DNA from: Acidobacteriota bacterium
Lineage (GTDB): Bacteria > Acidobacteriota > UBA6911 > RPQK01 > JAJDTT01
Direction: 5' to 3'
Length of the DNA: 64,000 bases
Assembly (NCBI GenBank): GCA_965209055.1
Contig: OZ242374.1
Span: forward strand, 3,968,001 to 4,032,000
The notes beneath the pieces are model-generated. The model was given only the letters and a program-made list of their open reading frames with translations. It ran no database searches and was not told the origin of the DNA. Both the position numbers and the translations under genes were made by a program. Positions 22,408-43,463 of this stretch are shown one piece after another. How positions within the stretch are numbered: the stretch's first letter is position 1; each line of letters begins with the position of its first letter.

Positions 22408-24171
22408 CTATGGCGGCGAACCGGTGGACGGGCCTGGGAGATCCATAGCCGAGGCCACCGGCGAAAAGATGGGATCGTCCTCACGCCAAGGGCGCCGGCA
22501 GGGTTGTCGGCTTTGGTAAAGCGCGAGGTTTTCGTTCAGGAGCCGCGCCAGATCGAAGCGCTGGTTCCGCTGTAGATCGGAAATCATGGCCCGTTGCATC
22601 TCGGCTGCCCGTTCAAACTGCCCCGTTGCGGCGAAGGCCATCGCCAGAGTTTCGACGTATTCCAGTTCAAGCTCGCCCTGGCCCTCGAACAGGCCTTTGA
22701 GAATCTGCAACGCTCTCATTCCATTTCGGATCTTTGGGTCGGGAGAAGCGGCGAGCAGCCGAGCCACGGCGTGCGTCATGTCGGCGTGGCCTGGAAAAGC
22801 CTGCAGTCCTTGCTCCAATACCTCTAACGCCTGCTCATGCCGGCCCAATTGGACCAGGGCCATGGCCCGCATGAAATGTGCCAGGATGCTCATTTGCCGG
22901 ATCTGTCCGCCTCCAGCGCTATCGGCCGGGGACCGGCTGGCGAAACCGGAATCGAGTTCGGCGACGGCCGCGTAGCGGGGGATGGCCTGATCGAAACGCC
23001 GGAGGCGCATCAGCAGATTGGCCAACTGAAAGTGCGCCTCCATGAACCCCGGGTTCGCCTCAATGGCTCGCTGATAGTGCCTGGCCGCTTCCTCTTCGGA
23101 CTGCAACCCCATCAACGTGGTTCCCAGGTAGTAATGGAGCATGGGATTTCCGGGCGAGACCCGCAGCGCCTGAGCGTATTCCCGCGCCGCGCCTTGGAGG
23201 TCCCCCATTCGAGCCAACGCCGAACCCAGATCGGTGAGCGGAACCGGGTTCTTGGGATCCAGAGCCACCGAGGTGCGGTATTCCTTGACGGCCTCCGCAA
23301 ATCGCCCTTTTCCGAACGCCCGCATTCCACGGACCCAATGATGGCGCCAACCTGTGGTCAGATCGTCCAGGGCTTCCATCAGGGGATCCGGATAACCGGC
23401 GGTGGCATGGCCGCGCCGGAGCCTCTCCAGCATGGCGACCTGCTGGAAATGGGCCTGGGCCTGGTCCAGGTCTCCTTGCCTTCGGTAACTCATGGCCAAC
23501 AGGTAGTGGATGCTGTTGGCTTCCGGTTGCAACGCCAGGGCGGCCTCGAAGTTGCGGATGGCTTCCTTGGTGCTCCGTCTTGAGGAGGCGATCTTTCCTA
23601 TCCCCACCAGGGCGGGAGCACAGTCTTCGTCCAGTGCCAGCGCCCGCTCGAACAACGGCTGCGCCCGGTCGTAGCGGTTCAAGCTGAGGTGGCCTTCAGC
23701 AGCGCCCAATATGGCCGGGACGTTCTCGGGTTGGTGCTCCATGGCCCGCTGGTAAGCGGCGATGGACTGCTCGAGATCACCCTTGTTCCGAAAGATGTGA
23801 CCCAGGTAGTAAGGCCAGCGAAAGTCTGTCGGCGCCAGTGACTCCGCATTGAGATAGCTGGCCTCGGCCGCGCCCAGGAAATCCTGGACGTGGTAGAGCT
23901 TGCCCATCTCACCGTAGGCTTGGGAGAGTTCCTCGGAGCTGGCCTTTCCCGCTTTCGCCATCGAATCCAGCCCCGCCCGCGTGTCCCTGATTCGCTTCCG
24001 GGCGGCAGGCTCCAGGCGGCTCAAATCCGGGTGGGGAATCGGCTGAATCGAATCATTCGATGGGGAGACCGGCGCGGATTCTCCCGCGGCCGCGAAGGGC
24101 AGGACGCCGAGCCCCAAGAGCAACAGGGCGCCGGCACGAAACCGGTTGCGGTGCTTCGTCGAATCACTCAT
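22408..24171 (-). CDS. Exported TPR protein (paralog of 41736-43463)
   Basis: Signal peptide from ATG 24171; PHPDL start, DFRWPYYLG, TPR arrays, C-terminal QPCRRPWREDDPIFSP. Confidence 0.87.
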   Translation of the reverse strand: MSDSTKHRNRFRAGALLLLGLGVLPFAAAGESAPVSPSNDSIQPIPHPDLSRLEPAARKRIRDTRAGLDSMAKAGKASSEELSQAYGEMGKLYHVQDFLGAAEASYLNAESLAPTDFRWPYYLGHIFRNKGDLEQSIAAYQRAMEHQPENVPAILGAAEGHLSLNRYDRAQPLFERALALDEDCAPALVGIGKIASSRRSTKEAIRNFEAALALQPEANSIHYLLAMSYRRQGDLDQAQAHFQQVAMLERLRRGHATAGYPDPLMEALDDLTTGWRHHWVRGMRAFGKGRFAEAVKEYRTSVALDPKNPVPLTDLGSALARMGDLQGAAREYAQALRVSPGNPMLHYYLGTTLMGLQSEEEAARHYQRAIEANPGFMEAHFQLANLLMRLRRFDQAIPRYAAVAELDSGFASRSPADSAGGGQIRQMSILAHFMRAMALVQLGRHEQALEVLEQGLQAFPGHADMTHAVARLLAASPDPKIRNGMRALQILKGLFEGQGELELEYVETLAMAFAATGQFERAAEMQRAMISDLQRNQRFDLARLLNENLALYQSRQPCRRPWREDDPIFSPVASAMDLPGPSTGSPP

Positions 24172-25939
24172 TCCCGCTGACTGTCCGGCCACTGCCCGCC
24201 AGAAGTGTGGAATAACGGCCAATGGGAAGATCGGTCCACTCCTCGACACCGCCGCCGGGCCAGGTGACACGGACGGCGTCGACTCGGTTCCGGTTCCCCA
24301 GCCCCACCAGCACCCGGGGATCGTTGGCGGAACCGTAGCTGCCGTCGGTCCTGACACGCCGTAGCAGCGTGAGGCCATCAGGGAAGACGACTTCCACCCG
24401 CGCTCCCAACATGTCCCGCGGGAGGTCTTTGCCCAGCAGCCGCAATCCCAACCAGTGACGGCGAGTCCCCACGTTGTTGATGAGCAGGCGTGCCGGACCG
24501 TTGTTGTTGACGATCAGCACGTCCACGTCTCCATCGTTGTCGACATCCCCAAAGGCGCCGCCGCGGCTCACCTCGGAGAGCTGGAAAACGGCTCCGCCTC
24601 GTTGGGTGACCTCCTCGAAACTTCCGTCGCCCAGGTTGCGGAAGAGCTGGTTGGGTTGATGCAACGGATAGGGATCCCGCAGTTTTTCCAGGGCCTCGAT
24701 GGTGGCCACCTCCCCGTGCAGGGCCAGAATGTCCAGCCAACCGTCATTGTCGTAATCCAGGAAGGCGGTCCCGAAACCGGTGTAGGGCATGCTCGCGACC
24801 CCCAATTCGCTCTCGAAGGTCTGGTCTTCGAACCATCCCTGTCCATTGTTGAGGTAGAGCGTATTGGTTTCCCGGATCAGATGGGTCATGAAGAGGTCTT
24901 CGTCGCCGTCGTTGTCCAGGTCTCCGGCGTCGACTCCCATGCTGGCCTCGGTCTTCCCGTCCCGGTTCAGGGCGCAGCCGGCCACCAGCGCTTCCTCCCG
25001 GTAACTGCCGTTTTTCTGGTTCATCCACAGGTGATTGGGACGTTGATCGTTGGCGACGTAGAAATCGATCCAGCCATCTCCGTTGAAGTCGGCGCTCACC
25101 ACCCCCAGCGCGCCGCCGTGCCTGGTGGCGACGCCGGTCCGGGAGGACACGTCCTGGAATGTCCCGTCACCCCGGTTGCGATAGAAACGGTTGGACTGGG
25201 CCGGGTAGCTGCGGGGTCCACAGTAGTCGATGGCGCCGGTACTGGAGTAGCACTTCTTGGGATTGGACAGCCGGTAGTCCACGTAGTTGCCCACGAAAAG
25301 GTCCAGCCAACCGTCCCGGTCGTAGTCCAGGAAGGAGGCGCTCACGCTCCACGCCGTATCGGCGCCGTCACCCACGGGGACCTCGGTGAAGGTGCCGTTG
25401 CCGTTGTTGCGGTACATCCGGTTCCTGCCGAAGTTGGTGACGTAGAGATCGACCCAGCCATCGTTGTCGATGTCTCCCGCCGCCACGCCCATTCCGTAGC
25501 CCAGCGAGACGATCCCGCTCTCGGCGGTCACGTCGGTAAAGCGCAGGTTGGGCGTCCCGTCCGGGTTCGACGTCAGGTCGTTTCGAAAGAGCCGGTCACG
25601 GAGCGGAGGCTCTTCCGGCGGCGGAAAGAGGGCGTCGTCGATGGTCTTGTCCGGGCCCAGCATCTGTCCCTGAACCAGGTAGACGTCCAGGTCGCCGTCG
25701 TTGTCGAAGTCCAAGAGGGCGCCTCCGGGACCCATCATCTCGCAAAAATAGTATTCCCCGGACATTCCGTTGAAGTGGCGGAAGTGGATTCCGGCTGCCG
25801 GGGCGACGTCCTCGAACCAATCGGCGCCGGTGTCTCCCGTCTTGGACGGGTGCGTCCACGAGGTGAAGAACCCCAAGGTGGCGACCCCGATCAGCAGGAT
25901 CATCCGGTTGTGTTGTGGGTTTGAATGAGGACTAGCCAC
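24164..25939 (-). CDS. CRTAC1 family FG-GAP / ASPIC-UnbV protein
   Basis: Repeated DxDxDGxxD Ca-binding blades, SRGGAFGDVDNDGD, ASPIC/UnbV tail (GSYGSANDPRVLVGLG..VTWPGG); start ambiguous (25978/25939/25903). Confidence 0.9.
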   Translation of the reverse strand: MASPHSNPQHNRMILLIGVATLGFFTSWTHPSKTGDTGADWFEDVAPAAGIHFRHFNGMSGEYYFCEMMGPGGALLDFDNDGDLDVYLVQGQMLGPDKTIDDALFPPPEEPPLRDRLFRNDLTSNPDGTPNLRFTDVTAESGIVSLGYGMGVAAGDIDNDGWVDLYVTNFGRNRMYRNNGNGTFTEVPVGDGADTAWSVSASFLDYDRDGWLDLFVGNYVDYRLSNPKKCYSSTGAIDYCGPRSYPAQSNRFYRNRGDGTFQDVSSRTGVATRHGGALGVVSADFNGDGWIDFYVANDQRPNHLWMNQKNGSYREEALVAGCALNRDGKTEASMGVDAGDLDNDGDEDLFMTHLIRETNTLYLNNGQGWFEDQTFESELGVASMPYTGFGTAFLDYDNDGWLDILALHGEVATIEALEKLRDPYPLHQPNQLFRNLGDGSFEEVTQRGGAVFQLSEVSRGGAFGDVDNDGDVDVLIVNNNGPARLLINNVGTRRHWLGLRLLGKDLPRDMLGARVEVVFPDGLTLLRRVRTDGSYGSANDPRVLVGLGNRNRVDAVRVTWPGGGVEEWTDLPIGRYSTLLAGSGRTVSGNE

Positions 25940-27569
25940 CTTTGACTCGGAAGCTGTCTCCGACCTGAGTCCTGGCATCGTTGAGCTGATCCCAAGCTTC
26001 GACTTCCACCCGGTAGGTTCCGGGTTCCAGGCCCCCCAGGTGAAAGCCCTTCACCAGGACCAGTCTGTCCGGCGAGAAAAACTGAACCGACTCCCCGTTG
26101 TTGTCGGTGGTTTCGTGAATGAGGTCGCCGCCGCGCCTGATCTGATAACGCACCTTCAACTCGGGCGCGTTGGAGGATTGATCCAGGCCGAAATTGTACA
26201 GATGCAGGTAAACCGCCAGCAGGGACTTGGGGGAAAAACTCTTGTCCATGCTGGGCCGTATTTTGACGTCTCCCAAAACGAACATCTGGTTGTCTTCGGG
26301 GACCTGGTCCAGCTTGCGGATGAAGTCGGAAAGAACGAGCGAACTGTTGCTCAGTTTCGCTCCTTCCTTCAATCCCGACGGCGGAATGATGGCTTGTTTG
26401 ACGGCGCCGATGTTGCTGCTTTCGACGTCCTTCACGACCAGATCGAGCTTGTATCGGGTCTTGTTGTCCAGAATCAGGACTTTCTGGTACATCGATCGGC
26501 CCCTCAAACTCCTTTCAAACTGCTCCGGCGTGTATGAGATCACCAGTTCATCGTCGAATTCCTGGATCAACTGATTGTCCAAGCTGGTCACGGCGCCGTA
26601 GAGGCCGATTCGAGCGGTATGCAGATCTCCCTTTCGCTTGAAGGTCATGTCCTTGTTCTGGAGTTGCAAGGTGACGGGAACCAGAAGCTTCTCCCGGTTG
26701 AGCTTGAAGTAGTCCCTTCGAACCTGGAAAGCGAGGTTTGAATAGCCGATGTTGACCTTCACCAACTCCTTCAGATCGTTGTACTTGATCTCCTTGGGGG
26801 TCTGCACCTTGGAGAAAATCTCGTAGCGGTAAAAGGGGTTGTTCCGAAAACTGCCGGTGTTGTAGGCGGGGTTGTGGCGTCCCGGAGCAAAATAGGGGCG
26901 GTCCTCTTTTTTGGTGAGACCTACCTGCTCGGCCCAGGTCAGGCCCTGACCCGGCATGTGCAGTAGGGCGTCCTTTTCTTCCGGATTGAGAGCCAGGTGG
27001 TAGTCTCCGGTGAAGGACTTGTCCACGAATTCCAACTCGATGTCGTCTCCGATGCCCTCCAGGTGCCGATAGCGCCACCGTTCGAATGCATAGACGGTCG
27101 TCTGTCCGCCACCCTGTTCGAATTCGCGGTCGTAGAAGCTTCCTGCGGCGTAGGTCTCGATTTCAGCCGGTTCCCCGTGAATGATGTAGACACGGCCCCG
27201 ATCCGAGCGCCATCCCTCCTTGCCGGAGTGGAATCGCTCATTGGCATAGGCGATGCGCCGATAGTGTTCTTCCTTGAACTCGTTGAGCGCCGTCCGGGGA
27301 TCGGGGTCTCGCCGGCGCCAGAACTGTTCGATGAAGCGTTCCTTTTCGTCCTCCGTCGTCAGCTTTGCAAAGACCGACTTCTCCTCTTCCGTAATAATGT
27401 AGACGGCATCCCGTTCCAGCCAGTTCTTGAAATAGTCCTCACTTTCCTCACGGCGAACGTCGGGATCCACCTTTTGCTTTGCCGCCATCGCGGGAAAGAA
27501 AGGCCCCAGCGACAGAATCATCAATAGGGGAGGGAATAGAAGACGCACGGCTCTGGCCCTTCGTTCCAT
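25932..27569 (-). CDS. GWxTD domain-containing protein
   Basis: Signal peptide; WLERDAVYIIT.EE, FWRRRDPDP, EHYRRIAYAN, GWRSDRGRVYIIHGEP; the upstream extension to 28727 is a shadow of the opposite-strand gene. Confidence 0.9.
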   Translation of the reverse strand: MERRARAVRLLFPPLLMILSLGPFFPAMAAKQKVDPDVRREESEDYFKNWLERDAVYIITEEEKSVFAKLTTEDEKERFIEQFWRRRDPDPRTALNEFKEEHYRRIAYANERFHSGKEGWRSDRGRVYIIHGEPAEIETYAAGSFYDREFEQGGGQTTVYAFERWRYRHLEGIGDDIELEFVDKSFTGDYHLALNPEEKDALLHMPGQGLTWAEQVGLTKKEDRPYFAPGRHNPAYNTGSFRNNPFYRYEIFSKVQTPKEIKYNDLKELVKVNIGYSNLAFQVRRDYFKLNREKLLVPVTLQLQNKDMTFKRKGDLHTARIGLYGAVTSLDNQLIQEFDDELVISYTPEQFERSLRGRSMYQKVLILDNKTRYKLDLVVKDVESSNIGAVKQAIIPPSGLKEGAKLSNSSLVLSDFIRKLDQVPEDNQMFVLGDVKIRPSMDKSFSPKSLLAVYLHLYNFGLDQSSNAPELKVRYQIRRGGDLIHETTDNNGESVQFFSPDRLVLVKGFHLGGLEPGTYRVEVEAWDQLNDARTQVGDSFRVKGG

Positions 27570-27827
27570 TGGAGATCTCATCGAGTCGAGCCCGGTTCGG
27601 ACTAGTTTAGGCAAGATCCGATTGGGGTTCAATGACGGAGCGCCGTCGATCTGCAGGGCCGTCGCACGGTGGGTGACCGGTACCTGAAGAGGGACAGCCG
27701 CAGGGTTGGTCCCGACTTGACCGGTTTGACGGTCAGGCCGCAGGATGGGTTCGGTGGCGGCAATCGTCATTTCAATTGAGACAGACCGCAGATTCGGAAA
27801 TCTCTGCCCCCTGCTTGAGACAAGCCG

Positions 27828-30050
27828 GTGAAGCTTTACAGATCGGGTCGGCCCCTTCAGCGGAGATTCAAGGCAACCATTGCTTTTCCCATCATCTTGG
27901 GGACCCTGTTCGGCTCGAGTTGGATCGGATGCACGCAATCGGAACCGCCGCAACCGCCACCTTCCGCGACAGATTCCGGCACTGAAGAAGCAGCGGAAAC
28001 CAGGGAGCCCGAGCCTCCCGTGGGCTTGACTTTCACCCGGGACATCGCGCCCATCGTCTTCCGGAACTGTTCTCCTTGTCACCGGCCGGGCGGAGCGGGT
28101 CCGTTCGATCTGCTCAGCTACGACGACGTCAAAACGCGGGCCCGGTTGATGGTCGCGGTCACGCAGAGTCGCTTTATGCCTCCCTGGCAGCCCGAGCCCG
28201 GCTATGGAGAATTCATCGGCGAGCGCCGGCTCGGCGATGAGCAGATCGAGATGTTTCAGGAGTGGGTGGCCCAAGGGTCGGTAGAAGGGGATCCGGCCGA
28301 CCTGCCCAGTATCCCGGAGTGGCCCACGGGATGGCTGCTGGGGCCGCCCGATTTGATAGTGACCATGCCCCGGCCATACACCCTGGCCGCCGAGGCCGGC
28401 GCGGCGGGGAAGGACGTCTTTCGCACCTTCGTGCTGCCGGTTCCGCTGGAGTCCATGCGTTACGTCCGGGCGTTGGAATTGAGGCCCGGAAATCCCAAGG
28501 TCGTGCATCACATCGTGGGTGGTGTCGATCCCACACCGCGCTCCCGGCAACGCGACCAGCAGGACCAGACACCCGGTTTCGATGGGATGAGGTCCACGCA
28601 GACGGCTCGTCCGCCCGGAGGCCATATCCTGGTCTGGACCCCTGGAAAGGTCCCCACGGAGTACGCCGAGGGCTTGGCCTGGGGACTCCGGGAGGGGACC
28701 GATCTGGTGCTGGAACTGCACATGCAACCGTCAGGCCGGCCGGAACCGGTTCAGCCCAGCGTCGGTCTTTATTTCAGTGAAGAGGCGCCCACCAAGACCC
28801 CGTTCATCCTGATTCTGGGCTCCGTCGCCATCGATATTCCGGCGGGCAGCAAGGACCACCGGGTCGAAGACAGCTATGTGCTGCCGGTGGACGTGCAGGT
28901 GACGAGTCTCTATCCGCACGCCCATTTCCTGGGCAAGCAGATGGAGGTCTTCGCGCGCCTTCCCGACGGGAGCCGGCGCTGGCTCCTCTACATCAAGGAT
29001 TGGGACTTCAACTGGCAGGACGATTATCTCTACTCTGAGCCCGTCTCGCTCCCGCGCGGCACCGAACTGACCATGCGCTACAGCTACGACAACTCGGCCG
29101 ACAATGTTCGCAATCCTCACAATCCGCCCCGGCGAGTGGTCTACGGCCCCAATTCCTTCGATGAGATGGGCGAGGTGTGGATCCAGATGTTGACCCGGGA
29201 CCAAGGCGACCGGACAACGCTGCAGAGTGATTATCGGCGCAAACAACTCGACCTGGGCATTGCCGGCTTCCGGCATTCCCTGGACACCAGGCCCCAGGAC
29301 GCCAAGACCCATCTGCAACTGGGTCAGGCACTGTACGTCCAGGGAAAGATCGACGAGGCCATCAAGCATTTTCGCCAGGCGCTGGACTTGCAACCTGTCA
29401 GCGCAGAAACGCACGCCTATCTGGCCAACGCCCTGATGCAAAAGGCCAATCCGGAGCAGGCGATTCGGCATTATTCCCGGGCGTTGGAGATCAAACCGGA
29501 CTTTGTGGAGGCTCACCTGCATGCCGCCAACGCGCTGATGGGGATCGGAAGACACGCTCTAGCGGAAGGGCACTATGCGCGAGTCGTCGAATTGAAAGGC
29601 GGCCACGCCTTCGCCCGCTACATGCAGGCCATGGCGCTGATCCGGCTGGGCCGCTACCGGTCCGCCCGGTCCCGCCTGGAAGAGGGCCGCCGGGCGTTGC
29701 CCGGCGATATCGACATCACTCACGCCCTGGCCCGGCTTCTGGCGGCGGCTCCCGACGACAGCGTCCGCAACGGATCGCTGGCCCTGCAGCTGTTGCAGCA
29801 GGTGTTTCAAGCCCAGGAGGAAGTCTCCTTCGAACACGTTGAAACACTGGCGATGGCCTTCGCGGAGACGGGGCAGTTCCAGCGGGCGGTTCAGATGCAG
29901 CAGGCCATGATCGAGGACGTCAGCCGGGGCGGCCGATTGGATCTTGCCCAAATGCTGCAGGAGAATCTGGGCCGGTATCGCCGGGGACAGCCCTGCCGAC
30001 AGCCGTGGAAGGACGATGATCCGGTCTTTTCACCGCTTCCGGGGGAATAG
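27828..30050 (+). CDS. Lipoprotein: cytochrome c + copper type II (PHM/DBH-like) monooxygenase + TPR
   Basis: WIGC lipobox; CSPCH and MPPW; VVHH, LELH, HAH, DEM copper-ligand pattern; WDFNWQ; TPRs; C-terminal QPCRQPWKDDDPVFSP. Confidence 0.85.
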   Translation: MKLYRSGRPLQRRFKATIAFPIILGTLFGSSWIGCTQSEPPQPPPSATDSGTEEAAETREPEPPVGLTFTRDIAPIVFRNCSPCHRPGGAGPFDLLSYDDVKTRARLMVAVTQSRFMPPWQPEPGYGEFIGERRLGDEQIEMFQEWVAQGSVEGDPADLPSIPEWPTGWLLGPPDLIVTMPRPYTLAAEAGAAGKDVFRTFVLPVPLESMRYVRALELRPGNPKVVHHIVGGVDPTPRSRQRDQQDQTPGFDGMRSTQTARPPGGHILVWTPGKVPTEYAEGLAWGLREGTDLVLELHMQPSGRPEPVQPSVGLYFSEEAPTKTPFILILGSVAIDIPAGSKDHRVEDSYVLPVDVQVTSLYPHAHFLGKQMEVFARLPDGSRRWLLYIKDWDFNWQDDYLYSEPVSLPRGTELTMRYSYDNSADNVRNPHNPPRRVVYGPNSFDEMGEVWIQMLTRDQGDRTTLQSDYRRKQLDLGIAGFRHSLDTRPQDAKTHLQLGQALYVQGKIDEAIKHFRQALDLQPVSAETHAYLANALMQKANPEQAIRHYSRALEIKPDFVEAHLHAANALMGIGRHALAEGHYARVVELKGGHAFARYMQAMALIRLGRYRSARSRLEEGRRALPGDIDITHALARLLAAAPDDSVRNGSLALQLLQQVFQAQEEVSFEHVETLAMAFAETGQFQRAVQMQQAMIEDVSRGGRLDLAQMLQENLGRYRRGQPCRQPWKDDDPVFSPLPGE

Positions 30051-30072: not shown

Positions 30073-30075
30073 CAT

Positions 30076-33813: not shown

Positions 33814-35844
33814 GTGAAGCTTTACGGGCCGGATCGGCCTCTCGGGGAGAGATTCAAGGCAGGCGCGGTCTTTCCGCTCTTGATGGGGGCGTTGTTCAGC
33901 TCGATCTGGATGGGGTGCACACAACCCGACTCTCTTCAGACAGCCCCGCCGCCTCCCGAGTCAAGCGTAGAAGACTCGCTGAAAACTTATGCGCCCCGGC
34001 CGGCCGGCAGCTTGACCTTCCACCGGGACATCGCTCCCCTGGTGTTCGAGAACTGCGCGCCCTGTCACCGGCCCGGGGGATCGGGTCCGTTCAACCTGCT
34101 CGGCTACGACGACATCAGCCGCCGGCGAAATCAGATCGTCACCGTCACGCAGAGCCGTTACATGCCGCCCTGGCAACCCGAGCCGGGATACGGGGAGTTC
34201 ATCGGCGAGCGCCGCCTGAATGCGGATCAGGTCGGGATGTTGTCCCAGTGGGTGGCCGAGGGGGCGATCGAAGGAAATCCGGAAGATGCCCCGGAGGTGC
34301 CGGAATGGCCGTCCGGCTGGCATCTGGGTGAGCCGGACCTGGTTCTCACCATGCCTCGGCCCTATACCTTGGCGGCTGATGGTCCGGACGTCTTCCGGAT
34401 GTTCGTGATACCGGTTCCCTTGAAGTCAAGCCGTTTCGTCCGTGCCTTGGAAATACGCCCCGGCAACTCCAAGGTGGTGCATCATGCGGTGGGACTGGTC
34501 GACACGACCCGGCGCTGCCGGAACCTGGACGCGGAGGATCCCGTTCCCGGCTTCGAAGGCATGAGGTCCACCGAGTTCGCTCGCGCCCCCGACGGCAACT
34601 TTTTGGGGTGGACGCCCGGCAAGATTCCGACGGAGAGCGCCGGAGGGAGGACCTGGCGGCTGAAGAAGGGGACAGACCTGGTCATGGAACTGCACATGAT
34701 GCCCTCCGGCAAACCGGAACCGATTCAGCCCAGCGTGGGGCTCTATTTCAGTGACGAGGCCCCGGCCAAGTCCTCCTTCATCATCGGGCTGGGATCCCGG
34801 ACCATCGACATTGCCCCGGGGGAGAAGGAGTATTGGATCGAGGACAGTTATGTCCTGCCGGTGGCCGTGGAGCTTCTGGGCGTTTACCCGCATGCCCACT
34901 ATCTGGGGAAACGGATGCGCGCCTTTGCACAGCTTCCCGACGGCAGCAGGCGGTGGCTCGTCTACATCAAGGAGTGGGACTTCAATTGGCAGGACGAATA
35001 CGTCTACCGTGAGCCGATTTCTCTGCCGCAGGGAACCCGTCTGACCATGCAGTACAGTTACGACAACTCTGCGGAAAACATTCGCAATCCCCACAACCCG
35101 CCGCGGCGGGTGGTCTACGGCCCCAATTCCAGCGATGAGATGGGGGACCTGTGGCTCCAGGTATCGGCGGAAAACAGAAATGACCTGCTGACCCTGCAGA
35201 TCGACTACCGCGCCAAGGAGCGTGACCGGTTCATTGCCGGCTACCGGCACGCCTTGCAGATCAAGCCGGGGGATGCCCGGACGCACGACCACCTGGGACA
35301 GGTGCTTCAGGCGCGGGGAAGGGTTGAGGATGCCATCGGCCACTATCGTCAAGCGCTGAAACTCCGTCCGGGTTATGCGGAGACCCACAGCAATCTGGCG
35401 ACCGCCCTGGCGCAGCAGGGTCATACCGAGGAGGCGATCGGCCACTACGGGCAAGCCCTCAAAATCAAGCCGGACCTGCTCGAAGCCCACTACAACCTGG
35501 GCGGAGCCCTGCTGGCCATGGGCCGCACCGGCCAAGCCATCGCCTCCCTGCGGCGAGCCATCCGGATCGAGCCGGAGTTTGCCAGGGCGCACAACAACTT
35601 GGGCATCGCCTTCGCTCAGCAGGAGGATTTGGCCCAGGCGCTGTTCCACTTTGAGCGGGCGGTGAGGATCGATTCGGACTTTGCGGAGGCCCGCAACAAT
35701 CTTGGCAATGCGCTTCTCGCGACCGGGGATTTCAGCCGTGCCGTGTTCGAATACCGGCGCGCCCTTCAGATCGACCCCAGCTATGCGGATGCCGAGCGCA
35801 ACCTGAAGCTGGCGCAGGAACTGCTGCTGACTTCCCCCAATTGA
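33814..35844 (+). CDS. Lipoprotein: cytochrome c + copper type II monooxygenase + TPR (paralog of 27828-30050)
   Basis: GTG start aligned to paralog (MKLYG..); WMGC lipobox; CAPCH, MPPW; VVHH, MELH, HAH, DEM; TPR tail. Confidence 0.85.
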   Translation: MKLYGPDRPLGERFKAGAVFPLLMGALFSSIWMGCTQPDSLQTAPPPPESSVEDSLKTYAPRPAGSLTFHRDIAPLVFENCAPCHRPGGSGPFNLLGYDDISRRRNQIVTVTQSRYMPPWQPEPGYGEFIGERRLNADQVGMLSQWVAEGAIEGNPEDAPEVPEWPSGWHLGEPDLVLTMPRPYTLAADGPDVFRMFVIPVPLKSSRFVRALEIRPGNSKVVHHAVGLVDTTRRCRNLDAEDPVPGFEGMRSTEFARAPDGNFLGWTPGKIPTESAGGRTWRLKKGTDLVMELHMMPSGKPEPIQPSVGLYFSDEAPAKSSFIIGLGSRTIDIAPGEKEYWIEDSYVLPVAVELLGVYPHAHYLGKRMRAFAQLPDGSRRWLVYIKEWDFNWQDEYVYREPISLPQGTRLTMQYSYDNSAENIRNPHNPPRRVVYGPNSSDEMGDLWLQVSAENRNDLLTLQIDYRAKERDRFIAGYRHALQIKPGDARTHDHLGQVLQARGRVEDAIGHYRQALKLRPGYAETHSNLATALAQQGHTEEAIGHYGQALKIKPDLLEAHYNLGGALLAMGRTGQAIASLRRAIRIEPEFARAHNNLGIAFAQQEDLAQALFHFERAVRIDSDFAEARNNLGNALLATGDFSRAVFEYRRALQIDPSYADAERNLKLAQELLLTSPN

Positions 35845-35903: not shown

Positions 35904-37718
35904 ATGGGCGCTCTCCGAGGGGGTTTCCGGGTCATCCTGATCATCGACGCCCTGCTATCCGTATGTCTTGCCCAGAATCCTCAGCAGGCCGCCGCTCCGG
36001 GGCAGCAAGAAGGAGATTCGACGGCCACCGAAATATTTGTGGATGCCACGCGGGAAGCGGGGATCGATTTCGTCCACTTCAATGGGATGTCGGGAGAACG
36101 CTACCTGTGCGAAATGATGGGACCCGGCGGAGCCTTGTTCGACTATGACAACGACGGCGACCTCGACCTCTACCTGGTCCAGGGCCGCATGCTCGGACCG
36201 GGAAAGACGCTGTCCGATGCCATCTTCCCTCCACCCGATTCCGGACCGTTGATCGACAGGCTCTTCCGAAACGACCTGCGGAAGAACCGGAGCGGCGAAC
36301 GACGATTGCACTTCACCGATGTGACGGAGCAAAGCGGGATCCAGTCCCCGGGCTACGGGATGGGCGTGGCGGCGGGAGACTTCAACAATGACGGATGGAC
36401 CGACCTGTACGTGACCAATTTCGGGCCCAACCAGATGTTTCGGAACAACGGGGACGGGACCTTTACCGATGTGACCGCGGCCACCGGCACGAATGACCCG
36501 CGCTGGAGTGTCAGCGCGGCGTTCGTGGACTACGACCGGGATGGCTGGCTCGACCTTTACGTGGGCAACTACGTCGACTTCAGCTTCTCGAACCACAAGC
36601 GCTGCTTTTCTTTCTCCGACGCGGGCGGCGGCAGCGCACTTGAGTATTGCGACCCCAGCCAATACCAACCGTTGCCGGAGAGCCTGTTCCGCAATCGGGG
36701 GGATGGGACCTTTGAAGATGCCTCCCACAAGGCAACAATTGCGCGGGAATCGAATGGCGCCTTGGGCGTGAGTACGGCCGACTTCAATGGGGACGGCTGG
36801 ATCGACATCTACGTCGCCAATGACAAGCGGCCCAATCACCTCTGGATCAATCAAAAAGACGGCAGTTTCCGGAACGAGGCTTTGCTGAACGGATGCGCCG
36901 TCAGCGGGGAGGGTTTTTCCGAGTCCAGCATGGGTGTTGACGCCGGCGACTTTGACAGTGACGGAGACGAAGATCTCTTCATGACGCACATGTCGCTCAA
37001 CGAGAAGAACACCCTCTATGTCAACCAAGGGAAGGCGTCGTTCAAGGATGCCTCCTACCCGAGCGGGCTGGCCCTTCCCAGCATTCCATTCACCGGATTC
37101 GGAACGGCATTCCTGGACTACGACAATGATGGCCGGCTGGACCTTCTGGCCGTCAATGGACACGTCAAGAATGTCGAGGCGCTGGCGCGGGCCAAGGACC
37201 CCTACCCCTTGCATCAGACCAATCAACTCTTCAGGAATCTGGGGCAGGGAAGATTTCAGGAAGTGACCCGAACTGCCGGGGCCGTGTTCAGGCTGTCGGA
37301 AGTGAGCCGCGGAGCGGCGTTCGGGGATGTGGACAACGACGGAGACACGGACGTTCTGGTCCTCAACAACAGCGGGCGGGCGCGGCTGCTGGCCAATCAA
37401 TCCGGAAGCGTCAACCACTGGATAGGACTGAGGCTTGCCGGCCGGCCGCAGGGCCGGGACATGTTGGGCGCGAGAGTCGCGGTCCTGCTACCCGAGGGCC
37501 GAACCCTGTGGCGCCGGGTCCGCTCGGACGGGAGCTACGCCTCCGCCAATGACCCCAGGGTGCTGGTCGGGCTGGGCCGGGCGGATCGAGTCGAGGCGGT
37601 GCGCGTCTACTGGCCCGACGGACGGGCGGAAGAATGGAAAGAACTGCCGATCAAGACGTATTCAATGTTGGTGCAAGGCGCAGGGACCCGGTTCTCCGTG
37701 CCGCCCCAGCGTCGATAG
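35904..37718 (+). CDS. CRTAC1 family FG-GAP / ASPIC-UnbV protein (paralog of 24164-25939)
   Basis: HFNGMSGE.Y.CEMMGPGG, DxDxDG repeats, ASPIC/UnbV C-terminus. Confidence 0.9.
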   Translation: MGALRGGFRVILIIDALLSVCLAQNPQQAAAPGQQEGDSTATEIFVDATREAGIDFVHFNGMSGERYLCEMMGPGGALFDYDNDGDLDLYLVQGRMLGPGKTLSDAIFPPPDSGPLIDRLFRNDLRKNRSGERRLHFTDVTEQSGIQSPGYGMGVAAGDFNNDGWTDLYVTNFGPNQMFRNNGDGTFTDVTAATGTNDPRWSVSAAFVDYDRDGWLDLYVGNYVDFSFSNHKRCFSFSDAGGGSALEYCDPSQYQPLPESLFRNRGDGTFEDASHKATIARESNGALGVSTADFNGDGWIDIYVANDKRPNHLWINQKDGSFRNEALLNGCAVSGEGFSESSMGVDAGDFDSDGDEDLFMTHMSLNEKNTLYVNQGKASFKDASYPSGLALPSIPFTGFGTAFLDYDNDGRLDLLAVNGHVKNVEALARAKDPYPLHQTNQLFRNLGQGRFQEVTRTAGAVFRLSEVSRGAAFGDVDNDGDTDVLVLNNSGRARLLANQSGSVNHWIGLRLAGRPQGRDMLGARVAVLLPEGRTLWRRVRSDGSYASANDPRVLVGLGRADRVEAVRVYWPDGRAEEWKELPIKTYSMLVQGAGTRFSVPPQRR

Positions 37719-37788: not shown

Positions 37789-38946
37789 TCACTGTGGCGT
37801 TCCCTGCAGGAAGCTTCCGGCATCGCGCTGCTTCTTATCGCGTTCCTGCGTGTCCAGTCTCTGAAACAGCTCCAGCTCTTTTCGAGCCTCTTCCGTCCGT
37901 CCCAGCGTCTTGTAGATCTGAGCCAACTGATAGTGGGGCTGGGGCTGGTTCGGATCCAGGGCGATGGCTCTCTGCAACGCCGCCACGCCGTCCTGTAGCC
38001 GTCCCTTGGCCACGTAGGCCGAGGACAAGGCGACGTAAGCATCGGGAATCTGATTATCGACGCGGGTCACCGCCTCCAGATGCTGGATCGCTTCGTCGAA
38101 CTTCTGGCGGTAGTTCTTGATGATTCCCAGCTCCAGATTGACGATGGGATGGTGGGGATCGATCTTCAACTCCTTTTCCAGCACCGGCTCCGCCTTGTCG
38201 TACTGTCCCAAACCGAAGTAGAGATCACCCAGCGCGAAGTTGACCCCGGGCGCGTTGGGATTCAGGGCGACGGCTTTCTCGTATTCTTCGATGGCCTGGT
38301 TCAGACGCCCTTGGGTGGCGTAAGCCTCCGCCAGCAATTGGTGGGTGCGGAAGGACTCCGGATCGATCTCCTCGATCCGCGAGAAGACCTGCTGGAACTT
38401 GTCGTAGGCGCTTCTGGTCCGGTTCAAGTAAGCCTGGGCCAAAGTCTGAAGTGCCTCCAGCTCCTGGGGATGTTTCTTGGTGACCTCCTCCAGGTGCTCG
38501 ATACTCTCGTCAAGCCGTTGCAGAGCCAGGAAAGAGACCCCCAGGTAGACCTGCGCCTTGATGTTTTCGGGATTCCGGGAAATCGCCTGTTGGAATGCCC
38601 CGATCGCCTTCTGATAGTCATACAGGCTGTAGTGGGCGAGTCCCAGAAAGAAGTGGGCGTCGGGCAGCTTGGGTTCGAGTCTCAGCGCCTTCTCGATCGA
38701 GGCGACCGCTTCCGTGAATCTTCCCTGAAACTGATGGATCAGCCCCAACTTGGCATGGAGAGGCGCGAACTCGGGTTGGATCGCCAACGCTGCCCGGTAG
38801 GCCTGTTCGGCTGCGCTCCAGTCGCCGTTCTGCTCGGCGCGAGCGGCATTCTGGAGCTGTTCCTGAACCGCTGGAGGCAGTTGGACGGGTGTCCCGGCCG
38901 CCTGCATCCCCACCAATGTCAGAAGCAACAAACTATGAATTGCCAT
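37789..38946 (-). CDS. Exported TPR protein
   Basis: Signal peptide MAIHSLLLLTLVGMQAAG; TPR arrays; HYQLAQIY..LGR.EEA.KELELF end. Confidence 0.87.
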   Translation of the reverse strand: MAIHSLLLLTLVGMQAAGTPVQLPPAVQEQLQNAARAEQNGDWSAAEQAYRAALAIQPEFAPLHAKLGLIHQFQGRFTEAVASIEKALRLEPKLPDAHFFLGLAHYSLYDYQKAIGAFQQAISRNPENIKAQVYLGVSFLALQRLDESIEHLEEVTKKHPQELEALQTLAQAYLNRTRSAYDKFQQVFSRIEEIDPESFRTHQLLAEAYATQGRLNQAIEEYEKAVALNPNAPGVNFALGDLYFGLGQYDKAEPVLEKELKIDPHHPIVNLELGIIKNYRQKFDEAIQHLEAVTRVDNQIPDAYVALSSAYVAKGRLQDGVAALQRAIALDPNQPQPHYQLAQIYKTLGRTEEARKELELFQRLDTQERDKKQRDAGSFLQGTPQ

Positions 38947-38963
38947 CACACAGCTACTACAGC

Positions 38964-41435
38964 CTACGGCTCCGTTACATTCAATTCGGAACCGGCTGGT
39001 ATGGGTCCAGGAAGCACTTGTTGCTGACCTGACGGCCATAGCACCTCGACCTGATCGACACGACCGGCATCGCCGAGCCCGAAGTAGAGCGGCCAGCGAC
39101 TCTGTGAGAGGTATCCGGACTGGCCGTCCCGCACCCTGGTGTAGGTGGCCGAACCCGCGCGGACCGTGACCCGGGCGCCGAGCCCGTCGCGGTTCGAGCG
39201 GGTCCCGGTGAGATTGACTTTGAGGAAATGAATCCGCTTCCGATCAGCCAGGTCGCTGACCAGGACCATGGGTTCGGAATTGAAATCGTTGGTCACGATG
39301 TCAAGGTCCCCGTCGTCATCCAGGTCGAAAATCACCGAGGAACGTGAGCCTATGGCACCCCAGGCCACGACACGGGTGACTTTGGCGCCCCGGGCCCGGA
39401 CCTTTTTGACCAGTTCGTGGTCCTTGTCGGCGCCGAGCACGTCCAGTTCGAACCAGGGGATGAGGGTCCGGCCGCCGCGCCTGGGTTCCACTCCCAAAAT
39501 GAATTCGCTGTCCACGAATCTCCGTCCGCGGTCATTCAGCAGCAGACTGTTGATTCCGTAACGATAGCCGTAGTTCATGCAGGACGTGATGAAGGCGTCA
39601 TCGAATCCGTCGGCGTTCAGGTCCCCCACGCTCAGTCCCCAGGGCCAGTAGTTCTCGGCATTGAATCGATCCGACATTTCCTTGTAGGCGCCATCTCCCT
39701 GTTTGCGGAAGAAGGCGTTTCCCCAGACGTGATTCCCGTCGGTGGCCAACATCTGCTTCTCGGCGATCTCCTCGGGGAAGGGGATCTTTTCCTTCTCGCT
39801 GAACGGATCGAGATGCTTCCACATGTCCGTGTGCATGTCGGTCAGATAGAGGTCCAGGTGACCGTCGTTCTCGAAGTCGAAGACCTTGATCCCCATGGTT
39901 CCCCACGGCGTGGCGGGAAACAGCCGGCGGCTCTTCTTCACGAATCGCCGGCCTTCCACATTCTCGTAGTACTGATCGTGGCCCTGCATGTTGGCCAGAT
40001 AGAGGTCAGGCCACCCATCGTTGTTGGCATCCAGCGGACTGGCGTCGCCCGACCAACTCGTATCCTGCAGACCCGCCTGGACGGTGACGTCGACGAACCG
40101 GTTTCCTCCCTGGTTCCGGTAGAGGATGCTGGGCTCCGAGAGCGCGTCATTCAGGTGGCGGTTGAAGGCATCCGGCGTGGAACGAAAGTAGGTATAGGTG
40201 GCGCGATCGGTTCCCGTAAAGGAGTCATGGACGACCGTCCTGATTTCGTCCGTCGTATAAATGCCGACATTCACCAGGAAGAGGTCCAGGCGGCCGTCGC
40301 GGTCGTAGTCGAAGAAGACCGCCGCCGAGGAATGGCCTTTGTACCCGAGGCCGGACTCGACGCTGATGTCCTTGAAGACTCCCTTCCCGTTGTTCTCGAA
40401 CAACACGTTGCCCCCGCGAACGGTGGTGACGTACAGGTCCGCATCGCCGTCATTGTCGATATCGGCAAAAGACGCGGTCACGCCGATTCGCTCTTTGACA
40501 CCGACCCCCGCCCGCTCCGTGATGTTCTCGAACCTGCCGCCGCCCAGGTTCTTCCAGAGTTCATTGCTGCCGGCCTGGCTCACGAAGTAGATGTCATGCC
40601 GGCCGTCGCCATCGACATCGGCAATGGCGAGTCCGTTGCCATGGTCGTAATGGGCGAAAACAAAGGACCTTCCAGCATCGTCGACGATCCGGTTGCGAAA
40701 AGTGATGCCCGACTCCCCGACCCGGTCCTCAAACGAAAAATCGTGGAGGACCTGCATGCCGCCGGCGCTTTCAAGCTGGGCCTGCCGGCGTTCTTCCAAC
40801 CACGGGAATTCCTGCCACAGGAGACGTTCCTGCAGCGTTGTCAGGACATCCCTCTTCAGGGCCTCTCTCCGGCCGGCTGCGTTGCCGTCGTAGAACCCTC
40901 GGACATGCCCTTGCGGATCGACCAGCATCCATTTCCCGCCGGACTCAAGCGCCGGCCCGGCGAACCCCGCGTCTACTTGCCCGAGTGTGTCCCGGGGACC
41001 GGTCAGGAAGCTCCACTGCGCGCCGTCGACCCCGGCCGCATTTGCGTAACTCCGAAGGACTTCCGGCGAGTCGTGCTCCGGATCGGCCGTAAAGGTGACC
41101 AGACGAATGTCGCCCCAGCCCGGCCGTCTCTTGAGTTCCCCTTGGAGCTTCGCCAGCGCGGCGGTTTGCGACGCCGCCTGCGGATCGCGGGTGCGAATGA
41201 AATCCGCGATCCATGCTTTGCCCAGCAGTTGGTGGGTCCCAAAGGTCCGGGAGAGGTGATCGGTCAAGGAGAACTCGGGCAAACGGCGCAGTACGGGAGG
41301 TTGATGGTCTTGCGGGCGGGTTCTCTCGTCGGCCTCCCGGCGCAGGTTCGGCGCGGCGGCCGGAGCCGCCGCCAGACCGAGCCAAACCACTGCCAATATG
41401 CCGCCCGCCCTCCTTGCCGAATTTGGTGGGGCCAT
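38964..41435 (-). CDS. SCO/SenC-like domain fused to FG-GAP / ASPIC-UnbV protein
   Basis: Signal peptide; LPEFSLTD..LLGKAWIADF..DPEHDSPEVLRSYA..WSFLTG..LVDPQG.VRGFYDG (SCO-like), then DxDxDG blades and GYLSQS..LYFGLG..WPSG. Confidence 0.85.
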   Translation of the reverse strand: MAPPNSARRAGGILAVVWLGLAAAPAAAPNLRREADERTRPQDHQPPVLRRLPEFSLTDHLSRTFGTHQLLGKAWIADFIRTRDPQAASQTAALAKLQGELKRRPGWGDIRLVTFTADPEHDSPEVLRSYANAAGVDGAQWSFLTGPRDTLGQVDAGFAGPALESGGKWMLVDPQGHVRGFYDGNAAGRREALKRDVLTTLQERLLWQEFPWLEERRQAQLESAGGMQVLHDFSFEDRVGESGITFRNRIVDDAGRSFVFAHYDHGNGLAIADVDGDGRHDIYFVSQAGSNELWKNLGGGRFENITERAGVGVKERIGVTASFADIDNDGDADLYVTTVRGGNVLFENNGKGVFKDISVESGLGYKGHSSAAVFFDYDRDGRLDLFLVNVGIYTTDEIRTVVHDSFTGTDRATYTYFRSTPDAFNRHLNDALSEPSILYRNQGGNRFVDVTVQAGLQDTSWSGDASPLDANNDGWPDLYLANMQGHDQYYENVEGRRFVKKSRRLFPATPWGTMGIKVFDFENDGHLDLYLTDMHTDMWKHLDPFSEKEKIPFPEEIAEKQMLATDGNHVWGNAFFRKQGDGAYKEMSDRFNAENYWPWGLSVGDLNADGFDDAFITSCMNYGYRYGINSLLLNDRGRRFVDSEFILGVEPRRGGRTLIPWFELDVLGADKDHELVKKVRARGAKVTRVVAWGAIGSRSSVIFDLDDDGDLDIVTNDFNSEPMVLVSDLADRKRIHFLKVNLTGTRSNRDGLGARVTVRAGSATYTRVRDGQSGYLSQSRWPLYFGLGDAGRVDQVEVLWPSGQQQVLPGPIPAGSELNVTEP

Positions 41436-41735
41436 CGTTTCAGCTACGGGGGTTCGGAGTACCACCCCGTGAAGGGGATAGGATCTTCTTTTTTCGGGAG
41501 CCTGGCAAGGCCAACTCCTGCGCGGCGGAGCTTGGTCAATAGCACCTGGACAGCCGTCACCCATAAGCCTCTCTGTTCCCTCCGGTGGTATTCTTCTAAG
41601 AAAAAGGGGGGGCGATTTCCAATCGCCCAGTCTTCGTTGCCAGGTTTGTCGCACCGGAGATCGGCGGTTAGGAAACCGCCGCTCCTTTTTCGACCGGGCG
41701 TCCGCCGGACTGGGCCGGTGGGGGAGCTTCTGAGA

Positions 41736-43463
41736 ATGTTTCGGTTCTTCGCAAACGGCAGGGGAGCCTTACCAGTGCCGGCCAGGCTGACCCTGGCTCT
41801 GGTTTTCCTGGGTGTGGCCGGTGTCCATGCCGCAGGCGTACCGGCCGGGCTTCAGGATCCCGGCGCCAGAGATTTGACCCCCGTTCCTCATCCCGACCTC
41901 AATGCCGTCGAGCGGATGATTCGGGAGCAACTTCAAGCGGAGCGTTCCAAGTTGGCGGCGATGGTCTCGGCGGTCGAAGTTCCCGATTCGGCTCGGGCTG
42001 ATGCTTTCGGTGGGCTGGGAAGGCTCTACCACGCCTATGATTTCACCGAGGCCGCCCGCGCCTGCTACCGGAATGCGTTGGTCCTGAAGCCGAAGGATTT
42101 TCGCTGGGCCTATCTGCTGGGCCGCCTGTTGGAGAGCCAGGGGGACCTGCAGCAAGCTGTCGAGCAATACCGGCGCGCCGCCGGCATCGAACCCGAAGAT
42201 CTTCCGACACTGCTGCATCTGGCCCAAGCGCAACTGAACCTGAATCGCCCGGACCTGGCCGAACCGCTCTTCAAGGAGGCCATCTCCCGCGACCCGTATC
42301 CGTCGTCAGCCTCGGCGTTGGCGGGGCTGGGCAAGATTGCTCTCTCTCGAAACGATCCTGAGGAGGCCATCGAGTACTTCGAATCCGCCGTCTCGATGCA
42401 ACCGGACGCCAGCAGCATCCACTATCCACTGGCCATGGCCTACCGGCAGATCGGGGATCTGGAGAAAGCGCGGGAACATCTCAGGAAACGCGGGACCAAG
42501 ACCCCGGAATATCCGGATCCGCTGATGGAAGAGCTCCGTAAAGTCAGAACGGGCAAGCAGTTTTTTTGGAGTCAGGGCACAGTGGCGCTGAGCGAAGGAC
42601 GCTTCGCCGAGGCCGCCGAGGCTTTCCGCCAAATGGTGGCGGCCGATCCTCAGGAGCCGATCGCCCACATGGACCTGGGGACGGCGCTGCTTCAAATGGG
42701 AGACGTGGGCGGAGCCATGGCCAAGTACCAGGAATCGCACAGGCTCTCGCCGGGCAATCCCCGGCTTCACTACAATCTGGGGTTGGTTTACACCCTGCGG
42801 AAGGCCTATCCGAAGGCGCTCGAGCATTATCGGAACGCCGTCGAACTGGATCCCGGATTCGAGAACGCCCATTTCAATGCGGCGAATCTATTGATGAGAC
42901 TGGGGGACATGGCGCAGGCCGGGCAGCACTACGGCCGAGTCAATGAACTGAATCCCAGCCACGCGTTTGCCCGATTCATGCAGGCAATGACGTTGGTGAA
43001 GCTGGGCCGTTTTCAGGCCGCGCGAACGCTTCTCGAATCAAGCCACAAGGCTCTGCCGGAGGACATCGATATCGCCCATGCTCTGGCGCGCCTGCTGGCA
43101 GCTTCGCCCCAAAGCACGGTCAACGACGGACGGCTGGCTCTGAAGCTCCTGCAGGATGTCTTCAAGTCCCAGGACGAAGTGGCTTTCGAGCAATTCGAGA
43201 CACTGGCTATGGCTCTGGCAATGAGCGGCCAATTCAATAGAGCTTTGCAGGTCCAGCAGGGAATGATGAACGAAGTCACGCAATCCGGCCGCGCGGATCT
43301 GGCTGCCTTGCTTCAGGAGAATCTGGTTCTTTATCGGAGTGGCCAGCCCTGCCGTAAACCGTGGAGGGCCGACGACCCGATTTTTTCGCCCGTCCCGGGA
43401 GATCTGGCGCCGCTGAAGTCAGCAGGGGAAGGGGCCAATCCATCTCCAGCCCTGACGAATTGA
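41736..43463 (+). CDS. Exported TPR protein (paralog of 22408-24171)
   Basis: Start ATG 41736 within the 1348 aa ORF; PHPDL, DFRWAYLLG, TPRs, QPCRKPWRADDPIFSP. Confidence 0.87.
   Translation: MFRFFANGRGALPVPARLTLALVFLGVAGVHAAGVPAGLQDPGARDLTPVPHPDLNAVERMIREQLQAERSKLAAMVSAVEVPDSARADAFGGLGRLYHAYDFTEAARACYRNALVLKPKDFRWAYLLGRLLESQGDLQQAVEQYRRAAGIEPEDLPTLLHLAQAQLNLNRPDLAEPLFKEAISRDPYPSSASALAGLGKIALSRNDPEEAIEYFESAVSMQPDASSIHYPLAMAYRQIGDLEKAREHLRKRGTKTPEYPDPLMEELRKVRTGKQFFWSQGTVALSEGRFAEAAEAFRQMVAADPQEPIAHMDLGTALLQMGDVGGAMAKYQESHRLSPGNPRLHYNLGLVYTLRKAYPKALEHYRNAVELDPGFENAHFNAANLLMRLGDMAQAGQHYGRVNELNPSHAFARFMQAMTLVKLGRFQAARTLLESSHKALPEDIDIAHALARLLAASPQSTVNDGRLALKLLQDVFKSQDEVAFEQFETLAMALAMSGQFNRALQVQQGMMNEVTQSGRADLAALLQENLVLYRSGQPCRKPWRADDPIFSPVPGDLAPLKSAGEGANPSPALTN

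Follow-up and report, generated by a model that had tools for sequence, protein, structure and literature searches.

A genus-specific island of predicted heme c-PHM-like copper monooxygenases, CRTAC1-like propellers and TPR proteins in an acidobacterium

When genes for several exported protein families of unclear function lie side by side, do they encode one machine or an assembly of separately recurring parts? This question is raised by an island in the genome of an Acidobacteriota bacterium, a single contig of 6.08 Mb (OZ242374.1), of which we analysed 64,000 nucleotides (contig positions 3968001-4032000; hereafter the window). An earlier note on this DNA had described ten consecutive exported genes and proposed that they form one periplasmic or surface machine. 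The gene content is confirmed: between positions 22408 and 43463, Pfam matches with the domains that had been named were obtained in all ten open reading frames (ORFs), the PHM cores falling below the Pfam threshold and being recognised by fold and ligands. All ten genes also have a hydrophobic signal-like N-terminus or lipobox as claimed, judged by eye and not by a prediction program, with no clear positive n-region in UnbV1 and TPR2. The island, 21 kb long, nevertheless proves to be put together from reusable modules in a way peculiar to its genus, and is not a single conserved machine; it likely comprises six transcription units encoding eleven exported envelope proteins. We tentatively favour, at somewhat less than an even chance, a modular envelope island in which two PHM-like enzymes, PHM1 and PHM2, would serve as oxidative heads that are tethered by TPR tails and probably dock propellers of the CRTAC1 type.

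Two predicted heme c-copper monooxygenases

PHM1 and PHM2 are 65% identical to one another, flank the gene for an Oar-type barrel and begin with lipobox-like N-termini (SSWIGC/TQ in PHM1 and SIWMGC/TQ in PHM2, read by eye). Sequence families place them poorly. The matches to Cu2_monoox_C (PF03712; 13.8 and 12.2 bits, cut-off 23) and to Cytochrome_CBB3 (19.8 and 19.1 bits, cut-off 27) are below threshold in both enzymes, Pfam gave no match to PF01082 in either, and a few relatives have a precomputed PF03712 match. NCBIfam returned only sub-threshold TPR models, without a specific match for any PHM, UnbV or Oar gene, and no PDB sequence was matched by the PHM core at E <= 10. The fold is more telling. 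An AlphaFold (AF2) model of PHM2 has a mean predicted local distance difference test score (pLDDT) of 85.5 and a predicted template modelling score (pTM) of 0.83, and the top Foldseek matches to it are all PHM, followed by dopamine beta-hydroxylase (DBH), over about 284-316 aligned columns. The best match is PHM 3mll (E 1.4e-13, TM 0.66 on the target, 284 columns), and the next fold after PHM/DBH is seven orders of magnitude worse.

All 27 aligned homologues, PHM1 and PHM2 included, have the residues C48, C51, H52, M84, H190, H191, H261, H327, H329 and M410 without exception. They contain the CxxCH heme attachment motif together with M84, which lies in an MPPW stretch and would be the axial heme ligand. 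By order and approximate spacing, H190/H191/H261 are candidate CuH ligands and H327/H329/M410 candidate CuM ligands, an assignment made by comparison with the PHM ligand pattern (His-His...His for CuH, His-x-His...Met for CuM) and not by residue-level superposition. Because a confident model matches the PHM/DBH fold and the putative ligand residues are invariant, the description of both proteins as heme c-dicopper monooxygenase-TPR lipoproteins, first made in the earlier note, holds as a prediction.

The window enzymes thus resemble PHM and DBH (PDB 1phm, 3mll and 4zel) in their predicted two-domain beta-sandwich fold and in the order and similar spacing of the HH..H and HxH..M residues. Unlike them, they are bacterial, carry a lipoprotein signal and have a CxxCH cytochrome c domain at the N-terminus and a TPR domain at the C-terminus; they are only 16-18% identical to PHM and DBH, below Pfam thresholds, and, unlike in the animal PHM context, no PAL-type lyase is adjacent. 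The ascorbate-dependent PHM and DBH are textbook enzymes of animals, and the interest of PHM1 and PHM2 lies in what would be a bacterial version with a built-in cytochrome c domain and TPR tail. A parallel may be seen in cellobiose dehydrogenase, whose cytochrome domain passes electrons to the copper of lytic polysaccharide monooxygenase (LPMO): the common principle would be a heme domain that supplies an extracytoplasmic copper monooxygenase. The likeness is functional only, as the cellobiose dehydrogenase/LPMO system differs in fold, has mononuclear copper, is fungal and consists of two separate proteins.

The family is very large. Of the 8000 clusters (at 90% identity) that were scored, at least 7893 give a match at E <= 1e-5, and members occur in at least 598 GTDB species representatives, including Acidobacteriota, Planctomycetota, Verrucomicrobiota, Gemmatimonadota and Latescibacterota. 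In source databases they go by no other names than 'TPR repeat protein' and 'mono/diheme cytochrome c'; no curated model of the family was found, and literature searches turned up no paper on it, nor any on bacterial CRTAC1 function or GWxTD. The nine homologues longer than 1238 residues include tandem PHM, ankyrin, Trx/AhpC and alpha-galactosidase fusions, the last in two of the nine. PHM-like cores fused to an EF-hand, to redoxin/AhpC plus a haem-binding domain, or to alpha-galactosidase (Melibiase) were seen in other organisms (P0029, P0030, P0034, P0249, P0250, P0251), and the tails are thus exchangeable. Two PHM-like genes from bins labelled Acidimicrobiia and 'uncultured archaeon' (L028 and L030) fall inside acidobacterial clades of a quick tree, and reflect either mislabelled bins or gene transfer.

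Propellers, their TPR partners and the modules of the island

UnbV1, UnbV2 and UnbV3 combine FG-GAP_3 (140-182 bits) with a C-terminal UnbV_ASPIC domain (57-62 bits), which is the architecture of the CRTAC1/ASPIC-UnbV family. UnbV2 matches murine CRTAC1 (cartilage acidic protein 1; PDB 9etn) at E 1.8e-17, its relatives are labelled 'CRTAC1 family protein' or 'enediyne biosynthesis protein E4' in the sources, and UnbV1 is 61% identical to it. Unlike CRTAC1, these proteins belong to a set of 46 copies in one genome, many of them TPR-coupled, with one window copy fused to a Cys-free SCO-like domain. We know of no established function for bacterial CRTAC1/ASPIC-UnbV proteins. PAL, to which the propellers had been likened, is a six-bladed NHL-type propeller with a catalytic zinc site. 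That analogy is not supported: no NHL family matches any of the ten genes in Pfam, and the propellers are of FG-GAP/CRTAC1 type. The SCO-like domain had been correctly spotted in UnbV3 (closest paralogue at genome position 3369709, 60%), where PF02630 scores 38.3 and 41.8 bits (cut-off 22.8), but the copper-loading role attached to it is unsupported. UnbV3 has one Cys in 824 residues, at position 619 and not within the SCO-like domain, and there is no CxxxC copper motif; SCO1-style copper binding is therefore impossible.

The propeller genes are associated with TPR genes, as had been suggested. A same-strand TPR gene lies within 400 nucleotides of 17 of the 43 strong UnbV ORFs, compared with a mean of 0.93 and a maximum of 8 in 2000 shuffles, and this count is an underestimate because two UnbV-TPR pairs of the window were lost to an overlap filter. 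Many of the pairs overlap by 4 nucleotides, and in the window the UnbV1 stop overlaps the TPR1 start by 8 nucleotides. The firmest unit of the island is thus a CRTAC1-like calcium-propeller gene paired with a TPR gene, in many cases with translational coupling. TPR1, the partner of UnbV1, has its signal peptide from M70 of the ORF and is a paralogue of TPR3 (47%); TPR2 has paralogues at genome positions 3432493 and 5371960.

Over its last 275 residues, PHM1 shares 46% identity with the C-terminal halves of TPR1 and TPR3. A terminal module, QPCRxPW..DDPxFSP, is common to TPR1, TPR3 and the PHM1 tail, and no other protein of the genome has it. PHM2 occupies the TPR-partner slot directly upstream of the propeller gene UnbV2 on the same strand, at a spacing of 59 nucleotides, and this adjacency is kept in all four genus relatives examined (L001 and G045-G047).

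The other families of the island are likewise numerous, with about 45 Oar barrels and 20 GWxTD genes in the genome; PHM-like genes number three. Chaining of matches no more than 4 kb apart gave 109 groups, of which 23 have at least three members and seven contain UnbV, Oar, GWxTD and TPR together, the window island among them. The island is built of modules that recur separately, namely the propeller-TPR pair and the Oar barrel with or without GWxTD. PHM genes are found in only two islands, that of the window and a PHM3-Oar-x-Oar arrangement at 1.88 Mb, where two Oar genes come after PHM3 on its own strand, so that each of the three PHM copies, at two independent loci, is within 5 kb of an Oar gene. 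Paralogues of UnbV2, UnbV3, TPR2, TPR1/3 and GWxTD stand together at 3.36-3.44 Mb without any PHM gene.

Elsewhere in the genome, near-identical paralogue pairs were noticed around positions 160847-178310, 484590-494648 and 790173-796722. Branch lengths are 0.013 for the pair of UnbV genes at 160847 and 492891, and scores are almost equal for Oar 166505/488309, Oar 174361/790476 and GWxTD 177900/796243. These pairs point to recent segmental duplications of such islands.

Evidence for and against a PHM-propeller partnership

Neighbourhoods in other species were scored at 44 loci with at least 17 kb of sequence, with the expectation derived from the copy number and size of each genome. A UnbV gene lies within about 10 kb of the PHM-like gene at 7 of 44 loci against 1.69 expected (P ~0.001 if the loci are independent), so that the enrichment over copy number foreseen in the earlier note is weakly supported for this family. 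All seven positive loci have a PHM protein with a C-terminal tail of at least 100 residues (7/27 tailed against 0/17 tail-less; one-sided Fisher P = 0.023). Genomes with tailed PHM also hold more UnbV copies (median 13, against 2 with tail-less PHM) and contain UnbV more often (26/27 against 12/17, P = 0.025), comparisons in which phylum is a confounder. The most telling single case for the link is locus L008, from another family of the same order, where a single strand carries Oar, TPR, an AhpC/TSA-like gene, PHM, a broken PHM, PHM, TPR, UnbV and TPR. At L066, two UnbV-TPR pairs converge on the PHM gene. Docking of the propeller by the TPR tail is proposed because PHM2 sits in the partner slot, the PHM1 tail is homologous to TPR1 and TPR3, and the association is seen only in tailed forms; judged from these sequence relationships, a PHM-propeller partnership is plausible.

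Two of the loci with UnbV hold thioredoxin-like pieces. In L008, the gene directly upstream of the first of the three tandem PHM-like genes (5945-6730, plus strand) encodes a small protein of AhpC/TSA or thioredoxin type whose single Cys lies in the stretch TDCPIS; the sole Trx-fold piece in the window is the Cys-free domain fused to UnbV3. In L060 (3024-7319, minus strand), a Planctomycetales metagenome-assembled genome (MAG), an FG-GAP ORF is followed in one frame, with a single TGA between them, by a UnbV_ASPIC-AhpC/TSA-TPR ORF, 2.4 kb from a PHM-like gene. This FG-GAP/UnbV-AhpC-TPR arrangement could be one recoded protein (with selenocysteine, perhaps), a broken gene or an assembly error.

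Within the genus, three PHM copies are present in all eight other genomes, including the PHM1/PHM2 pair about 6 kb apart. The ten genes and a GH51 gene at the island edge are syntenic at 81-97% identity in three members (G045-G047). The RadC gene of the left flank is matched in the same three genomes, and an O-methyltransferase gene beside it in G046 and G047, not in G045; with the flanks also syntenic, the synteny shows vertical inheritance and intact genes, not functional linkage. The six genomes of the sister genus have a PHM3-type copy, 56-59% identical in the five intact cases, with an extra partial match at 49% in G056 and fragments only in G054. A quick tree unites PHM1 and PHM2 as sisters with support of 99 and groups PHM3 with L002, a near-identical relative, so that the latter grouping is not independent. 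The PHM1/PHM2 pair arose at genus level. The sister genus has a UnbV-to-TPR1-like pair with no PHM, Oar or GWxTD gene in 36 kb. At L102/L103 (G054:C12) and L100 (G056:C6), the UnbV upstream of the TPR1-like gene is present only as fragments (three ORF pieces, or a 340-nucleotide remnant), which suggests that the sister-genus propeller is decaying while the TPR gene stays intact.

Co-location within the genome exceeds uniform placement (UnbV within 15 kb of Oar, 26/46 against 9.2 expected; GWxTD within 15 kb of Oar, 12/20 against 4.0; GWxTD within 15 kb of UnbV, 14/20 against 4.0), a null that takes no account of the general clumping of exported-protein genes. The clustering in the window is above uniform chance, yet the same families clump throughout the genome.

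A number of results weigh against the partnership. In an all-against-all clustering of the neighbours at 80 loci (ORFs antisense to PHM set aside), no non-PHM/TPR family occurred in more than seven loci, and the clusters were generic (SDR, ABC transporters, DUF1501-like, kinases, ankyrin). No UnbV gene lies within about 10 kb at 37 of the 44 loci, and in six of the 44 genomes UnbV_ASPIC finds nothing to match; the 37 loci and the lack of a recurrent neighbour argue that the enzyme family mostly works outside such a context. The seven positive loci are themselves not independent, L001 being from the same genus and L010, L017 and L066 all from Vicinamibacterales. The UnbV model held one wrong training row (the TPR1 ORF); Pfam confirmed L008, L058, L060 and L069, and L010, L017 and L066 were called by the model only. 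PHM-Oar proximity, with at most 16 candidates per genome scored, is within chance (4/44 against 0.75-3.5 expected), and a PHM-propeller (FG-GAP/UnbV) fusion is absent from the nine longer homologues. None of the six sister-genus genomes has the PHM1/PHM2 pair, and outside the one genus neither this pair nor the complete order of ten genes was found. Finally, the three divergent intergenic regions of the island yielded one 12-mer pair with one mismatch, compared with 0.73 expected, and no common motif beyond chance.

Much of this would be expected from co-location without functional coupling, in which periplasmic PHM-like oxidases, self-sufficient as they would be in most species, were duplicated in this genus into one of many islands of expanded exported families. 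The genome has 23 such islands with PHM in only two, the paralogous sets at 3.36-3.44 Mb do without PHM, and the cluster is genus-specific, divided into six transcription units and bordered by an IS1595 transposase. We regard this explanation as rather unlikely, if still a serious one: it leaves aside that the UnbV excess is confined to TPR-tailed forms, that L008 is a co-directional array of the same families, and that PHM1 and PHM2 carry, respectively, a tail homologous to propeller partners and a position in the partner slot of UnbV2.

At the other extreme stands the integrated machine of the earlier note, in which Oar imports a substrate, the copper enzymes hydroxylate it, the propellers carry out a PAL-like second step on TPR scaffolds and the SCO domain supplies copper. 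The parts do lie together and are kept at 81-97% identity in the genus, the three PHM copies share their proximity to Oar, including the PHM3 gene with its two Oar neighbours, and L008 holds the same families; but the Cys-free SCO-like domain and propellers that are not of NHL/PAL type speak against two of the proposed functions, other genera do not conserve the full set, the cross-species proximity of Oar is no more than chance would give, and GWxTD is near PHM at one of 80 loci, the same-genus L001. Such a machine is improbable. Nor is a conserved ten-gene machine supported: the gene order is genus-specific, the genes fall into six likely units, and no motif is common to their divergent promoter regions.

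Under the reading that we favour, of TPR-tethered oxidative heads docking propellers, the fused cytochrome c domain would pass electrons from periplasmic carriers to CuH, replacing the ascorbate of the animal enzymes, and the CuM site would hydroxylate a C-H bond of the substrate. The TPR tail may hold a CRTAC1 propeller that binds or further handles this substrate, possibly a glycan or glycoconjugate, and the Oar barrel could move substrate or proteins across the outer membrane in either direction. A bolder extension, which we consider unlikely as it stands, would make CRTAC1-like propellers common substrate-handling partners of modular extracytoplasmic redox enzymes that dock by a TPR platform. 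The head would here be a self-reducing heme c-PHM-like dicopper monooxygenase, and the island would encode a bacterial complex for C-H hydroxylation whose targets, glycans or peptides from the host or the environment, are moved via the Oar-type barrel.

The island in any case provides a very large PHM-like family with a testable partner hypothesis, and would give a first enzymatic context to the bacterial CRTAC1/UnbV, GWxTD and Oar families that have expanded in Acidobacteriota and are just as unstudied. If the partnership is true, it would amount to a novel type of oxidative enzyme complex in the periplasm or at the surface; if it is false, the cluster results from ordinary expansion of families, and what is still worth study is the PHM-like enzyme.

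Layout, barrel, flanks and habitat

The features of the island are collected in Table 1. Gene starts were set by eye from N-terminal sequences, and ORF-based calls in this 60%-GC DNA are noisy; four long antisense ORFs that run alongside the ten genes gave no Pfam family. From the order of strands, six likely transcription units follow: GWxTD-UnbV1-TPR1, with GWxTD probably the first gene; PHM1; Oar; PHM2-UnbV2; UnbV3-TPR2, spaced by 17 nucleotides; and TPR3.

Table 1. Exported genes of the island, in window positions
Feature	Position	Strand	Description
TPR1	22408-24171	-	Pfam TPR families; exported, 587 residues
UnbV1	24164-25978	-	Pfam FG-GAP_3 (166 bits) and UnbV_ASPIC (58 bits)
GWxTD	25932-27581	-	PF20094 and TIGR04514; ~549 residues, exported
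PHM1	27828-30050	+	Predicted lipoprotein: heme c (CSPCH), PHM-like dicopper monooxygenase core, TPR1/TPR3-type tail
Oar-type barrel	30076-33528	-	CarboxypepD_reg and OMP_b-brl_4 (PF25183)
PHM2	33814-35844	+	Predicted lipoprotein: heme c (CAPCH), PHM-like core, generic TPR tail
UnbV2	35904-37718	+	Pfam FG-GAP and UnbV_ASPIC
TPR2	37789-38946	-	Pfam TPR; exported
UnbV3	38964-41435	-	SCO1-like, FG-GAP_3 and UnbV_ASPIC
TPR3	41736-43463	+	Pfam TPR; exported; divergent from UnbV3
GH51 alpha-L-arabinofuranosidase	43485-45086	-	PF06964 and PF22848; signal peptide, N-terminus MKRMFLPLILAAAAGPATAIQA

The Oar protein scores 65.6 bits for CarboxypepD_reg and 553.8 bits for OMP_b-brl_4, has a signal peptide ending LPVMA/QD and is 93-97% identical in genus relatives. 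Its residues 130-300 gave no Pfam Plug match at E <= 1, and a TonB box was not searched for. The GWxTD protein (PF20094, 60.3 bits in Pfam; TIGR04514, 110.8 bits in NCBIfam; signal peptide ending FFPAMA/AK) has an AF2 model with pLDDT 73 and pTM 0.56, for which Foldseek returned only RbmA and transglutaminases at TM 0.15-0.3. It contains no invariant Cys, the Atlas gave GWxTD clusters only, and no functional lead emerged.

Sponges are the probable habitat of the organism or its close kin: words were sampled from the central 10 kb, and 22-46% of them were found in several sponge-metagenome studies (runs X5-X21). Two sponge metatranscriptome runs of one study (X22 and X23) contained contigs at 90-95% identity, mostly of Oar with parts of UnbV1, GWxTD and UnbV2; PHM2, TPR2 and TPR3 were uncovered by these contigs, which come from relatives and are uninformative on expression level or absence. 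It could be that Oar works outwards, and that the island displays CRTAC1-like, TPR and PHM lipoproteins at the surface to act on or bind the host (sponge) matrix. We think this very improbable, the same module types being found in MAGs labelled as soil or freshwater lineages, whereas the sponge matches and the membership of CRTAC1 in an animal matrix protein family would agree with it. Published precedents in the same direction are one account of Oar in Myxococcus as required for secretion of the protease PopC (PMC6434023) and another that places ASPIC/UnbV and TPR domains among the repeat proteins of sponge symbionts (PMC3909097).

The eleventh exported gene, GH51, lies 22 nucleotides past TPR3 at the edge of the island and is 82-91% identical in the same position in G045-G047. 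With the PHM-glycosidase fusions seen elsewhere, this exported neighbour hints at a glycan or glycoconjugate substrate. Like the SusC/SusD polysaccharide utilisation loci of Bacteroidota, the genome has many paralogous islands around a TonB-dependent-type barrel with exported accessory proteins, and the likeness extends in one island, that of the window, to the exported GH51 at its edge. Unlike in those loci, the ten genes contain no SusD-family Pfam match, the barrel is Oar-type and the accessory genes are propellers, TPR and GWxTD, with glycan use only hinted at.

To the left, the island is flanked by the O-methyltransferase gene (21622-22368) and then RadC; to the right, by GH51, an IS1595 transposase and a DNA methylase. 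The O-methyltransferase was considered as a member of the unit and dropped, being missing at that position in G045. Directly past GH51, at 45267-47623, the IS1595-family transposase is followed by the DNA methylase, which is fused to a NACHT-associated inactive restriction-endonuclease domain. Neither was seen there in G047 or G045, and the one IS1595 match of G046, at 33% identity, is in another part of the region. A classical TonB-dependent receptor (Plug, barrel and CarboxypepD_reg) is encoded 10 kb upstream of the island at 9322-12111 on the plus strand, where it adjoins a metallo-beta-lactamase-fold gene and a MeaB GTPase gene.

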